Positions 49,646 through 52,973 of a DNA stretch of 64,000 nucleotides are shown in pieces. A program made the translations under genes and the position numbers. Numbering within the stretch: position 1 is the stretch's first letter; every line of letters starts with the position of its first letter. Under the pieces are notes generated by a model. It was given only the letters and a program-made list of their open reading frames with translations, searched no databases and was not told where the DNA came from. This DNA comes from Escherichia phage Mizar, in sequence record PV714129.1; one strand, given 5' to 3'.

Positions 49646-49950
49646 TATAATGTTCTCTCAAATTTGTGGAAGCATTTACGGCATTTCAATTTCAAGTTAT
49701 CAGTGGTCCAGTTAACCAGTTGGACTTGGATAGTTCCACATTCCGGACACGGATGTTTTGCTGCCGATTTGGCAGCATTTTCACGTCGTTCAACCATTTT
49801 CATTATTTCGTTCCATGCCGGAGGAACGAACTCTTCTTCACCGTGGATTTTATCTCGCTGAACAAATTCAATCTTTGAACTATCGTCAATAAACTTAACC
49901 AAGCCATGATTAGTGCTCATATCAATATCCTCTAAAAGACGTAGTTTCAT
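49645..49950 (-). CDS. zinc-ribbon protein (101 aa)
   Basis: CPECG...CRKC motif pair. Confidence 0.5.
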   Translation of the reverse strand: MKLRLLEDIDMSTNHGLVKFIDDSSKIEFVQRDKIHGEEEFVPPAWNEIMKMVERRENAAKSAAKHPCPECGTIQVQLVNWTTDNLKLKCRKCFHKFERTL

Positions 49951-50900
49951 TATAACACCTCAATGGCATTTCGTAAACCGTCCGCTTTCGCATTCAGAGC
50001 TTTTAACGATTTAGTCTGTTCTTTAATCTGGGCTTCGACTTCTTTCAGACGAGATTTGAGATATTCACGTTCTTCGCTCAAGTTGTCAACTTTTTCTACT
50101 TTAGGTTCTTTAATAGTCTTAAGTTTATACTCGTTAGGGTTCTTCAGCTTAATTCGGGTGCGAGAACTGTATAACATTGAACCGTTATCTTCGGATTCGT
50201 CGAACGTTTCAACAACATCCATAGTCTCTAACAATGTAATAAGTTTATAAGACAATGAACGAACGGTTTTGTTATGCTTATTAATTTCTTCAGCTTTCAT
50301 GGTACCGAGATTACGTGAGTAGTAATAAGGAACCTGGATATCAATTGACAATGATGCGTTACCATTACCGGTCGATTTGAATACTGCAGTAACCCAATCT
50401 TTAACATGAACTTTATTTGTACGACCATCACCGCCCGTGAATAATTTACGAGAATGTTTAAAAAGCATATTCACTTGGTTATTGAATTCACAAGCAAATT
50501 TATCAGCGAATTTAGTTTCAGGAATGGTAGATAACCAATCAGCCAAATGAGTCTTTTTAACATCATTAACAATAGTGAATTCAACCAAATCGGTTTTAGA
50601 TGTCACAGATTTAATAAAGCTCGGTTTCATAAAGTTTTTAATGTTATCGCGAGCTACAGTAGAAGATAATAAACGAGAACGTTTGAACCATTGAAGCAGC
50701 GTCCCTAGTGAATGAGAATATGCATTCTGAGTATCTTTACAGATATGATTTTCTTGGCCTGTGTATGTACCAAAATCGCGAAGAATACCACTTACTACAT
50801 CTCGGTGTGGAACATCAAATCCTAGTGCACCAACAGCGCGCCGGGCATGAACGTTAGCGATAAGACCGGCAAAGTATTCAATGTAATGTGAACGTGTCAT
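49950..50900 (-). CDS. hypothetical protein with C-terminal coiled coil (316 aa)
   Basis: track ORF directly downstream of an early-promoter cassette. Confidence 0.55.
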   Translation of the reverse strand: MTRSHYIEYFAGLIANVHARRAVGALGFDVPHRDVVSGILRDFGTYTGQENHICKDTQNAYSHSLGTLLQWFKRSRLLSSTVARDNIKNFMKPSFIKSVTSKTDLVEFTIVNDVKKTHLADWLSTIPETKFADKFACEFNNQVNMLFKHSRKLFTGGDGRTNKVHVKDWVTAVFKSTGNGNASLSIDIQVPYYYSRNLGTMKAEEINKHNKTVRSLSYKLITLLETMDVVETFDESEDNGSMLYSSRTRIKLKNPNEYKLKTIKEPKVEKVDNLSEEREYLKSRLKEVEAQIKEQTKSLKALNAKADGLRNAIEVL

Positions 50901-50928
50901 AATATTTTCCTCTAGTTAAGATAGATTC

Positions 50929-50958
50929 ATTATACTCCAACCATCCTTGGTTGTAAAC
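50929..50958 (-). promoter_or_regulatory. T4-type early promoter, 30-nt conserved cassette (approx.)
   Basis: minus-sense GTTTACAACCAAGGATGGTTGGAGTATAAT, identical core to the cassette near 8911. Confidence 0.6.
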
Positions 50959-50962
50959 TATT

Positions 50963-51922
50963 TTATGATTTTAATGCATTCATTGCGTTAAAAAGTTTAG
51001 AGTACTGCAACTGGAGATTCGTTACAACACTTTGAGCATCACGAAGCTTAGCTTGTGCTTTGTCAAGTTCAACAGACAGTTGGTCCATAGTGGCCTTGAT
51101 TTGATTGTAATGGTAATCTTCGACCGGAAGAAGGTCATTAGAAACATTTAGTTTTACTGCAGACAGTTTGCACACATTTGGCAAACCTTTAAACATTGAT
51201 TTACCCGAAGTAGAATATGAACCTAGAACTTCAGCATTACCAATTGGGGTTGCAGTAATTGACGCTTCAAATGTTGCATTTTCCTTTTTAAGATTTTGAT
51301 AGTATTCAGAGTCTTTGTGCCACCACGGCGCAGGAACCTTTTTACCAATAGATACACGAGCCTGGATAGCGATATGGCCCTTATTCTTGATAGGGTCGAT
51401 AATATTAAGCTCACGAGAATAAATTGCTTTAATCTGGTGGATATTATCACCTAAAACTTCCAACGCTTGGTGGAATACACGAGCAACGTTATCATTCTTA
51501 GGTTTATACGTAAGAGTGAACTCGTTCTCACTGATAACCATGATTTCTAACTTATCGTAAGTATATTTCAAATGTTTCATGTTAATTGCTTGAGGACGAA
51601 TACGAGAAGCAATGGCCATCAGATTATTAAGGTTATTCCGGAACTGCTTAGCGAAATATTGACCTTCACCGCCAATACAAAAATTACGAAGTTTCTGTTT
51701 GGCCAATAAACGGCTGAACTCACCATTTTTAATGAACTCTTTAACGGGTGTGTTAGTAACGCATTCAAATTGGGTAAACATACGAGAAGTAATCCCATAA
51801 TATGAACAGATTTCCTCAATCTCTTCAGGAGTCTTTACAGGCATACGGATAGGATTAGGTCCTGGAGTATATGCGTTCGAGGTAAATTCTTTGATAAGTT
51901 CTCTACGTGTAATAAAAGCCAT
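50963..51922 (-). CDS. hypothetical protein with C-terminal coiled coil (319 aa)
   Basis: track ORF downstream of an early-promoter cassette. Confidence 0.55.
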   Translation of the reverse strand: MAFITRRELIKEFTSNAYTPGPNPIRMPVKTPEEIEEICSYYGITSRMFTQFECVTNTPVKEFIKNGEFSRLLAKQKLRNFCIGGEGQYFAKQFRNNLNNLMAIASRIRPQAINMKHLKYTYDKLEIMVISENEFTLTYKPKNDNVARVFHQALEVLGDNIHQIKAIYSRELNIIDPIKNKGHIAIQARVSIGKKVPAPWWHKDSEYYQNLKKENATFEASITATPIGNAEVLGSYSTSGKSMFKGLPNVCKLSAVKLNVSNDLLPVEDYHYNQIKATMDQLSVELDKAQAKLRDAQSVVTNLQLQYSKLFNAMNALKS

Positions 51923-51948
51923 TTTATATTCCTCATGTTGAAAAATTT

Positions 51949-51977
51949 ATTATACTCCAACCATCCTTGGTTGTACA
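51949..51977 (-). promoter_or_regulatory. T4-type early promoter, conserved cassette variant (approx.)
   Basis: minus-sense TGTACAACCAAGGATGGTTGGAGTATAAT. Confidence 0.55.
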
Positions 51978-52973
51978 TCATTCCTTAAGAAGTTTTACTA
52001 CCTGAATAAGATTAGCTCGTTCTGTTTTATTTTTACCATTTAAGCCTGCTAATCGTGAGATTTCATCGTCAGTCTGTTGAATAGTTACATTAAGTTCATT
52101 AATCAAAGCTTCAAAGTATTTGATTTGCTCAGCATGTTTTGATTCAAATTTCTGAACCGGAATAACGTCTTGGTTTAGTTCGTCAATAAGGTCTTTAAGA
52201 GCATCTTCTTGGTTGATATCATATTCAACTTCTTTTATTTCTTCAACGAGCTCGTCTTTATATCTAACGTCTTTTAGTCCTGGTGCTGGTCCTGAAATCT
52301 CTTCTTTAAGAGTACAAACATACCCAATACGGTATCCAATGCCGTCTCGCTTGATATCAACTTCGTCGATAAATCCACAATGTTTAAGACCAGAGCCGAT
52401 TATGTCAAAATATCCTTGACGTCGTCCTTCAAACGTTACACGAACTACTAAGACAGTTTTGCCACCAACCTTTTGAAGCTCACATTTATAAAAGTCTGTT
52501 GAACCTGAATAACATGGATGAGTTTTAAAGTTCATCTGACGATCTAGGCCCATTTGTAAACGTGCTGTTACGGCCATAAAACGTGTTTGGTTCTCGTTAA
52601 GATGAGCAACAATCCATTTCAAAGGCATTTTACCCTGTTCACGACCGAACAAATCAGTACGTCCTAGATTACGCAGGATGTTGTTAGAGTTAATCATCGA
52701 CAGAACGTTAAGTTTATTCAGCGCGCTGAAGATTCCATCAGCCATTGATTTTCCATAACCTTTACACGCTTTAATAAGTGCTCGTGGCAGATTAGTATAG
52801 ATTTCAGATGGCATATGAAAATCAAATTTACTAGTCAGTAATTGATGAACTTGGATAGCAATTTGCTCATAATTAAGTGCTCTGCGATCGTTATGGTCTT
52901 TAAACCACACTTTAATCTGTGAAGCACATAAACCGTTAATTTCATGTTTTACCGCATCAGATGTAATGCTCAT
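51978..52973 (-). CDS. hypothetical protein with C-terminal coiled coil (331 aa)
   Basis: track ORF. Confidence 0.55.
   Translation of the reverse strand: MSITSDAVKHEINGLCASQIKVWFKDHNDRRALNYEQIAIQVHQLLTSKFDFHMPSEIYTNLPRALIKACKGYGKSMADGIFSALNKLNVLSMINSNNILRNLGRTDLFGREQGKMPLKWIVAHLNENQTRFMAVTARLQMGLDRQMNFKTHPCYSGSTDFYKCELQKVGGKTVLVVRVTFEGRRQGYFDIIGSGLKHCGFIDEVDIKRDGIGYRIGYVCTLKEEISGPAPGLKDVRYKDELVEEIKEVEYDINQEDALKDLIDELNQDVIPVQKFESKHAEQIKYFEALINELNVTIQQTDDEISRLAGLNGKNKTERANLIQVVKLLKE

Follow-up and report, generated by a model that had tools for sequence, protein, structure and literature searches.

The DNA considered here is a 64,000-nucleotide (nt) stretch of the genome of Escherichia phage Mizar (record PV714129.1), hereafter the window, whose positions are numbered 1-64,000 over the whole stretch. 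The subject is a run of three consecutive open reading frames (ORFs) at 49950-52973, together with the promoter-bearing cassettes that separate them. The window is that of an RB69-like Mosigvirus and is 98.8% identical to Mosigvirus genomes. The interval itself, 97-99% identical to many of them, corresponds to the part of the T-even hyperplastic region, bounded by nrdC.11 and nrdC, in which an RB69-like phage carries nrdC.6, nrdC.5 and nrdC.3. The original prediction, made from the sequence alone, had listed back-to-back ORFs of 316, 319 and 331 amino acids (aa), and these were found again exactly, all on the minus strand:

49950-50900, minus strand: nrdC.3 ortholog, 316 aa; its stop overlaps the nrdC.2 start (TAATG)
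50963-51922, minus strand: nrdC.5 ortholog of the RB69 type, Pfam DUF7235, 319 aa
51978-52973, minus strand: nrdC.6 ortholog, 331 aa

The gaps measure 62 nt between nrdC.3 and nrdC.5, 55 nt between nrdC.5 and nrdC.6, and 62 nt from the 331-aa ORF to the next upstream gene.

Identity and distribution of the three genes

It had been stated initially that these proteins could not be assigned to known T4 proteins. This view has to be abandoned, since in the reference annotations of RB69 and T4 these ORFs correspond to nrdC.3, nrdC.5 and nrdC.6. The 316-aa NrdC.3 is 56% identical to T4 NrdC.3 over its full length (316 aa, E=1e-117) and matches phrog_1435 (E=8e-102). The 319-aa NrdC.5 covers the whole PF23882 (DUF7235) profile (1-307 of 307, E=2e-121, 405.5 bits for a cutoff of 30), and T4 NrdC.5 is recognized by the same model (E=5e-126, 420.6 bits); the two proteins, both full-length DUF7235 members, are 26% identical, and the window gene occupies the expected syntenic slot between nrdC.6 and nrdC.4/nrdC.3. 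The 331-aa NrdC.6 matches phrog_2257 (E=3e-127) and is 33% identical over 306 aa to the full-length NrdC.6 of Tequatrovirus ZN18 (E=1e-32). The three window proteins belong to three separate PHROG families without assigned function, the homologs of NrdC.3 and NrdC.6 bearing PF26897 and PF26899, respectively.

The 316- and 331-aa ORFs are orthologs of T4 NrdC.3 and NrdC.6, with the same gene order and architecture, and T4 NrdC.5 shares with its window counterpart the PF23882 membership, the place downstream of nrdC.6, the length class and a C-terminal heptad helix closing in ...L.NA(L/M)NAL. The window differs from T4 by the absence of nrdC.4, by a full-length NrdC.6 and by a small insertion in the NrdC.3 N-terminus. 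Moreover, T4 nrdC.5 lies 14 nt after nrdC.6 and is promoter-less, whereas the window gene has its own early promoter cassette. As regards NrdC.6 in T4 itself, the reference gene (NC_000866) encodes 275 aa and ends in ...NNMMMKFSDYLD before its stop; in the stretch concerned (9497-9600, minus strand), the DNA just past this end encodes DDEIFRLSGLSSKAKSEREKLIKIVDLLKS, followed by a stop, in another frame. Because this out-of-frame DDEIFRLSGLSSKAKSEREKLIKIVDLLKS matches the C-terminus of full-length NrdC.6, both in ZN18 (295 aa) and in the window (compare 51978-52130), the T4 reference nrdC.6 looks frameshifted, with its terminal helix lost.

In GenBank, nrdC.3,.5,.6,.8,.10 and.11 commonly carry the label 'thioredoxin' (for example in ATK47, SHSML-52-1, moha, ESCO47 and CLB_P2). 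No thioredoxin domain is detected by Pfam in any of these six, and the label is an annotation artefact that derives from the way the loci were named (nrdC.x). In ATK47, nrdC.6 also bears the annotation of an 11-nt 'StbAB binding site', which was disregarded, as nothing supports it.

The genes flanking the array are found in phages of many host genera, with endonuclease VII (gp49) in 1,393 and NrdC.11 in 1,509 phage records. The array genes were counted as follows:

nrdC.3: 653 records
nrdC.4: 554 records
T4-type nrdC.5: 582 records
RB69-type nrdC.5: 160 records
nrdC.6: 741 records

All the records with nrdC.3,.4,.5 or.6 come from phages of Escherichia, Shigella, Yersinia, Salmonella or Citrobacter. 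The content of the array also varies:

T4 and ZN18:.6-.5-.4-.3
This window, RB69 and ATK47:.6-.5-.3
ESCO47 and p000v:.6-.3
Dhakaviruses Bp7 and CLB_P2:.6-(small ORFs)-.5-like-.4
Proteus phiP4-3: none of nrdC.3-.6

The modular, variable gene set that had been proposed is thus borne out, array content differing both between and within genera. The opposite possibility, that the ORFs would turn out to be T4 core proteins present in all relatives, proved half right: they are named T4 ORFs (nrdC.x), but nrdC.3, nrdC.5 and nrdC.6 are not core genes and are not present in every relative.

Those members that are present diverge rapidly. Between the window and ZN18, identity is only 25% for NrdC.5, 33% for NrdC.6 and 56% for NrdC.3, to be compared with 91% for gp49, 92% for NrdC, 85% for NrdC.8, 78% for NrdC.10 and 79% for NrdC.11 among the neighbours. 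The three genes are the fastest-evolving ones locally. When the RB69-type NrdC.5 profile was run exhaustively with HMMER against 1.84 billion representative proteins, it retrieved only its own cluster and one fragment, and a scan of IMG/VR with the nrdC.5 alignment gave only two near-identical loci. For NrdC.3, tblastn splits the relatives outside Mosigvirus into a band of 60-80% identity (about 75%; 356 records) and one below 60% (about 55%; 140 records), the latter including T4, T2, T6 and RB32, which suggests two allele classes, possibly exchanged between lineages. The variable block adjoins a conserved enzyme-like pair on the minus strand, NrdC.10 (54048-55085) and NrdC.11 (55435-56424). 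NrdC.10 is a P-loop ATPase with weak AAA/STAND-like matches and a weak C-terminal helix-turn-helix match; NrdC.11, the widespread flanking gene counted above in T4-like records, is an RlaP-type nucleotidyltransferase (PF10127, E=1e-12).

Promoter/hairpin cassettes and the loss of nrdC.5

A shared promoter core had been noticed in both gaps between the ORFs, and this observation stands: a 27-nt core, TACAACCAAGGATGGTTGGAGTATAAT, occurs without any difference at both 50955-50929 and 51975-51949. Four copies of a 22-nt sub-core are present in the window (0.00 expected from shuffles), the other two, at 8354-8375 and 8911-8932, lying about 42 kb from the nrdC cassettes. The elements concerned are:

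50929-50957, minus strand: nrdC.3 cassette; -35 TTTACA (50957-50952), hairpin CAACCA-AGGA-TGGTTG (50953-50938), GAG, -10 TATAAT (50934-50929), then the Shine-Dalgarno (SD) GAGG and ATG, ending at 50898
51949-51977, minus strand: nrdC.5 cassette; -35 TGTACA (51977-51972) right after the nrdC.6 stop, hairpin (51973-51958), -10 TATAAT (51954-51949)
53009-53037, minus strand: variant cassette upstream of nrdC.6; MotA-box-like AAACGCTTTA (53037-53028) overlapping the nrdC.8 stop, short hairpin ACCC-AAGGAC-GGGT (53028-53015), -10 TATAAT (53014-53009)
8911-8948, minus strand: distant cassette with the identical 27-nt core, upstream of a dexA.1/.2-like gene
8354-8391, minus strand: distant cassette with the compensatory stem CATCCA-AGGA-TGGATG, upstream of a paralogous small gene

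The full cassette reads, in order, stop codon, -35, CAACCA-AGGA-TGGTTG, GAG, TATAAT, leader, SD and ATG. In a sigma-70 promoter scan, the nrdC.3 promoter (TTTACA-17-TATAAT) scores 11/12 and the nrdC.5 promoter (TGTACA-17-TATAAT) 10/12. A stem-loop between -35 and -10 is among the commonest layouts in the definition of the promoter-early stem-loop (PeSL) (Arbiol et al. 2010, PMC2839356), a type of cassette also described in T4-type phages by Comeau et al. (2014, PMC4122927). As judged from their sequence, the nrdC.3 and nrdC.5 cassettes fit this published class, with which they share the upstream stop codon, the -35, the stem-loop before the -10, the SD and the ATG, as well as the setting: a hyperplastic region, flanking variable genes and chimeric cassettes at indel junctions. 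They differ in that the nrdC stem is short and not GGGG/CCCC-rich, with a conserved AGGA loop followed by GGAG. This AGGA sub-type, found in Mosigvirus and Dhakavirus, is not described in PMC2839356 or PMC4122927.

The nrdC.3 cassette folds as RNA into a 6-bp stem with a 4-nt loop between -35 and -10 (-6.9 kcal/mol). The loop is conserved while the stem varies (CAACC/GGTTG, CATCC/GGATG, ACCC/GGGT, and CCACA/TGTGG or AGCC/GGCT in T4). Over nine distinct variants, 87% of the stem cells are paired, compared with 69% in shuffles (0/500 shuffles as high) and 11-43% in slid-register controls, and compensatory changes affect 4/6 of the stem pairs. The cassette has no match in Rfam. Its hairpins are not called by a terminator scan, and terminator activity looks doubtful because the U-tract is missing and the stem is weak, which led us to reject the intrinsic terminator as the default reading.

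The initial proposal that each gene has its own promoter cassette holds for nrdC.3 and nrdC.5, which both have complete early promoters, but not fully for nrdC.6, the element of which is shortened. It has no -35 hexamer at 16-18 nt and is not called by the sigma-70 promoter scan. The MotA box has been defined as (a/t)3TGCTTtA, 12±1 bp from the -10 (Hinton 2010, PMC2988021); AAACGCTTTA agrees with this consensus at 9/10 positions and lies 13 nt upstream of TATAAT, with the hairpin in between. The element is kept in all Mosigvirus loci examined. It resembles the PmSL/MotA middle promoters (Comeau 2014; PMC2988021) in its box, spacing, stem-loop and TATAAT, although the first base of TGCTT is a C here. 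This similarity is compatible with two readings: the element may be a MotA-dependent middle promoter ('PmSL'), or it may be a decayed 'half' PeSL, nrdC.6 then depending on transcripts that start at the nrdC.8 promoter (53618-53591) and run through.

Cassette-mediated duplication or insertion was also proposed as the origin of the genes. A 251-nt probe across the nrdC.6/nrdC.3 junction of ESCO47 was compared with 153 Mosigvirus records. A contiguous junction match, with nrdC.5 absent, is observed in 21/153; in the other 132/153 the match does not span the junction, and this number equals that of the records carrying an RB69-type nrdC.5 at at least 80% identity. Two junctions, those of p000v and ESCO47, were inspected for chimerism. 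In p000v, the left part is the nrdC.5 cassette of the window and the right part the nrdC.3 cassette, both identical and joined in the 27-nt core. ESCO47 is chimeric in the same way; its stem is mixed, CAACC...GGATG, so that the crossover can be located to the loop or its vicinity, as has been reported for an RB49 mini-circle. F2 is a further natural Mosigvirus without nrdC.5. Since Tequatroviruses and Dhakaviruses carry nrdC.5 at this place, its deletion between the flanking cassettes is the simplest history. Gain or loss of a gene through the cassettes can thus be seen directly in the p000v chimera and the 21 nrdC.5-less records.

Several other features of the window were noticed. Downstream of dexA, three tandem small paralogs (7439-8922, minus strand) share the C-terminal ...ISDQWVEDG.(K/E)L(Y/L)N(I/V)VF.G.F.VV, and two of them are preceded by an AGGA-hairpin cassette, which makes this a second array of paralogs and cassettes. 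Another repeat family, D2, comprises early-promoter cassettes at 7384-7443 and 61809-61868, with weaker copies at 13408, 53569 and 55035. The D2 -35/-10 spacer (for example TTCTCCTCTGGTT) is the reverse complement of the downstream SD region (AACCAGAGGAGAA), so that read-through transcripts could sequester the ribosome-binding site and promoter-started ones could not. In the nrdC cassettes, GGAG stands right 5' of the -10 at 50935-50938 and 51955-51958; the corresponding read-through RNA, GGAGUAUAAUA or GGAGUAUAAUG, agrees at 9 or 8 of the 11 positions with the RegB/S1 target consensus known from the literature, GGAGAAUAAAA, and RegB might cut upstream transcripts directly 3' of the hairpin. 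A further promoter-like site (TTTACG-17-TATAAT with TG, 10/12) is found at 49949-49977 on the minus strand, in the last part of nrdC.3, with a -10 that falls on the stop of this gene and the start of nrdC.2 (TTATAATGA); the site may be due to chance.

Protein architecture and relationships between the families

All three C-termini had been described as heptad-rich. In the last 55 residues of the three window proteins, 33-45% are K, E, Q, R or D, with at most two Pro or Gly. A heptad a/d pattern is statistically significant in NrdC.5 (319 aa, p=0.001), modest in NrdC.3 (316 aa, p=0.024) and not significant in NrdC.6 (331 aa, p=0.24). AlphaFold (AF2) models show a single long C-terminal helix, at residues 268-318 in NrdC.5 and 275-315 in NrdC.3, with a predicted local distance difference test (pLDDT) of 60-80. 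Over the whole models the mean pLDDT is 41 and 51, which corresponds to a low confidence. The order of elements is nevertheless alike in both poor models: a helical bundle, three strands, a helix, two strands, a linker and the long C-terminal helix.

Pairwise BLASTP among the three window proteins gives no similarity. On sequence comparison, nrdC.3 and nrdC.4 can be regarded as secure paralogs (BLASTP E=7e-9 between CLB_P2 NrdC.4 and ZN18 NrdC.3; HHalign probability 97%, E=9e-11). HHalign on the first, shallow family alignments was uninformative (Neff about 1.5), and a mixed three-family MAFFT alignment, which misplaced the central motifs, was left out of the exhaustive search. HHalign aligned collinear regions with E=8e-4 for nrdC.4 and nrdC.5, 0.02 for nrdC.5 and nrdC.6, and 0.03 for nrdC.4 and nrdC.6. 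Restricting the comparison to the globular domains gave E=5e-4 between nrdC.3/4 and nrdC.5, 0.033 between nrdC.5 and nrdC.6, and 0.058 between nrdC.3/4 and nrdC.6. In iterative profile searches at E<=1e-3, nrdC.3/4, nrdC.5 and nrdC.6 stay unmerged.

Other signals between the families are likewise weak but consistent. When each family hidden Markov model (HMM) is run with 234 ORFs as background, 8, 8 and 4 of the top ten non-self ranks go to members of the other families. With the C-terminal 65 residues cut from profiles and targets alike, these members keep 4, 7 and 6 places among the top ten (p=2e-3, 4e-7 and 5e-6), with collinear matches. The Tegunavirus protein Yen9-01 gp94 matches window NrdC.3 by BLASTP (1e-5) and the NrdC.6 HMM (8e-6) through one common central region, which contains the motif A-x-(R/K)-L-x-x-G-x-D. 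All four families have in common an N-terminal M(K)TR..YI..F, a helix SRLLS...N(I/L)xNF, a PV or PI right before the terminal helix and a closing ...L..A(L/I)..LK. A common ancestry of the NrdC.3, NrdC.4, NrdC.5 and NrdC.6 families seems likely but unproven. As to the 'related' proteins of the original prediction, the homology of nrdC.3 and nrdC.4 is secure, but the links of nrdC.5 and nrdC.6 are suggestive, and the three window ORFs are not proven related.

Proteins of 292-336 aa are encoded in the equivalent region of a Moonvirus and a Tegunavirus, namely Citrobacter phage Moon (15098-16108) and Yersinia phage fHe-Yen9-01 (11240-12181 and 4959-5837). They end in heptad helices (...AVEALNEE, ...ALTALDAI and ...SLRTLK) and match several nrdC family HMMs weakly at once, and they may be distant members bridging the families. 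The 175-aa nrdC.8 product, seen among weak matches only, was considered as a short family member and left out.

Proposed counter-defence role and its alternatives

The functional data come from T4. A T4 clone lacking nrdC.5 was unable to plate on ECOR17 or on MG1655 carrying the ECOR17 dsr1 gene, and expression of nrdC.5 gave plating back on dsr1 cells (Srikant et al. 2022, PMC9391042). Dsr1 is a SIR2-domain defence (NADase), which is countered by T4 NrdC.5 (PMC9391042). In addition, T6 gp49.2 is an inhibitor of the OLD defence (PMC13096335), and its gene lies downstream of nrdC at a distance of a few genes. The 'effectors' of the original prediction are thus plausible, given that T4 nrdC.5 restores the infection of Dsr1 cells. 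A role in counter-defence or host range would also fit the rapid divergence, the within-genus presence and absence, the restriction to one host group and the early-type promoters. By analogy with T4, RB69-type NrdC.5 would keep an anti-Dsr1 activity, and NrdC.3 and NrdC.6 would be counter-defence proteins as well.

We thus favour, with a probability of roughly 0.6, the reading of the locus as a set of accessory counter-defence genes separated by recombining PeSL-type cassettes. Each gene would encode a pre-replicative accessory protein of about 320 aa. The N-terminal 250 aa or so would form an alpha/beta domain, with a helical bundle followed by three strands, a helix and two strands; a variable linker would lead from there to an amphipathic helix of 45-50 aa at the C-terminus, probably a coiled coil that oligomerises the protein. 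The most likely role of the protein would be in host range or counter-defence, each paralog neutralising a different host immunity protein by binding, with T4 NrdC.5 and Dsr1 as the precedent; we infer direct binding and coiled-coil oligomerisation here. The PeSL cassettes would give nrdC.5 and nrdC.3 their own transcription start; the transcripts of nrdC.6 would probably come from the nrdC.8 promoter by read-through, from a MotA-dependent middle promoter, or from both. Because their 27-nt core is identical, the cassettes could act as homologous recombination sites at which entire genes are deleted or inserted.

Protein inhibitors of SIR2-type defence are exemplified by DSAD1, which acts against DSR2. 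The likeness lies in the proposed mode of action, in which a phage protein would attach directly to the defence protein and prevent it from being activated; no relationship in sequence or structure was found.

A number of points weigh against this reading. The sole experimental datum on the function of the family concerns T4 nrdC.5, not NrdC.3 or NrdC.6, and the anti-Dsr1 activity may not transfer, since window NrdC.5 and the T4 protein tested share only about 26% identity. The PDB sequence search and PADLOC gave no relevant match for the window proteins and thus no hint of a mechanism; a Foldseek search of BFVD returned an ortholog of NrdC.3 as its only significant match, the rest being weak leads. 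The fold, and any shared fold, is unverified because of the low confidence of the AF2 models, and the heptad periodicity of window NrdC.6 is not significant (p=0.24). The links of nrdC.5 and nrdC.6 to the other families are each sub-threshold (HHalign E=5e-4 to 0.06, probability at most 31%), and the enrichment p-values are overstated, orthologs not being independent. Lastly, the hairpins across the cassettes are weak (-6.6 to -8.2 kcal/mol) and devoid of a U-tract.

Other explanations bear on the cassettes and on the origin of the genes. The cassettes could be ordinary strong early promoters held similar by selection for strength, recombination being a by-product of the efficient homologous recombination of T4 without any 'mobile cassette', and the dyad might serve to bind a protein rather than to form a hairpin. 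The window contains many further families of early-promoter repeats, T4 recombination requires less than 50 bp of homology (PMC2839356) and the hairpin is thermodynamically weak (z-scores -0.6 to -2.5). An identical -35/-10 spacer is unneeded for a promoter, however, and yet 17 spacer bases are identical in four copies; the stem varies by compensatory changes only, with A-U, U-A, C-G and G-C all found at one pair, which argues for structure rather than base-specific protein contacts. We consider this explanation, which parts from the PeSL-type reading mostly in emphasis, as rather unlikely. It is likewise conceivable that three unrelated conserved ORFs share a C-terminal amphipathic helix, the tandem resulting from accretion in a permissive region and not from duplication. 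This would account for the blank BLASTP comparisons, the three PHROG and Pfam families, the unmerged profiles and the low HHalign probabilities. Against it stand a cross-family enrichment and collinearity that survive removal of the coiled coil, the match of Yen9-01 gp94 to both NrdC.3 and the NrdC.6 HMM, the common terminal and central motifs and the same secondary-structure order, and the certain paralogy of nrdC.3 and nrdC.4; we hold it to be unlikely.

As concerns function, the proteins could instead be modulators of host takeover or housekeeping outside immunity, such as scaffolds of the coiled-coil type that target the nucleoid, division or nucleotide metabolism, the effect of T4 nrdC.5 on Dsr1 being indirect or specific to the T4 allele. 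The genes are set among nucleotide-metabolism genes (nrdC, nrdD, nrdG, tk), Pfam and PADLOC searches found no defence-related domain, and the evidence on T4 NrdC.5 is a plating phenotype. Housekeeping partners would not, however, be expected to push identity down to 25-56% beside neighbours at 78-92%, this scenario fails to explain presence and absence within a genus, and two genes of the neighbourhood, T4 nrdC.5 and T6 gp49.2, have demonstrated anti-defence phenotypes. We consider this scenario quite improbable.

A wider proposal can be put forward tentatively. NrdC.3, NrdC.4, NrdC.5, NrdC.6 and the distant Tegunavirus and Moonvirus members might form one hypervariable inhibitor superfamily, combining an alpha/beta recognition domain with an oligomerising coiled coil, each aimed at a different defence protein, of which Dsr1 would be the first; PeSL cassettes would swap its members, the whole working as a counter-defence island with shuffling.

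The nrdC.x accessory ORFs, the PeSL cassettes and the anti-Dsr1 member were already known from published work, and the gain is incremental to that extent. What is new here is the evidence from natural recombinants, the covarying AGGA hairpin sub-type and, as a probable addition, the NrdC.3/4/5/6 superfamily. If the counter-defence reading is true, the locus would be a compact natural system for the diversification and exchange of counter-defence genes in lytic phages, combining three or four fast-evolving paralogs, one with a known defence target, and a defined 27-nt recombination substrate. The natural isolates with and without nrdC.5 (132 and 21, respectively) provide ready test pairs for host-range work, and nrdC.3 and nrdC.6 stand out as candidates for new anti-defence activities.

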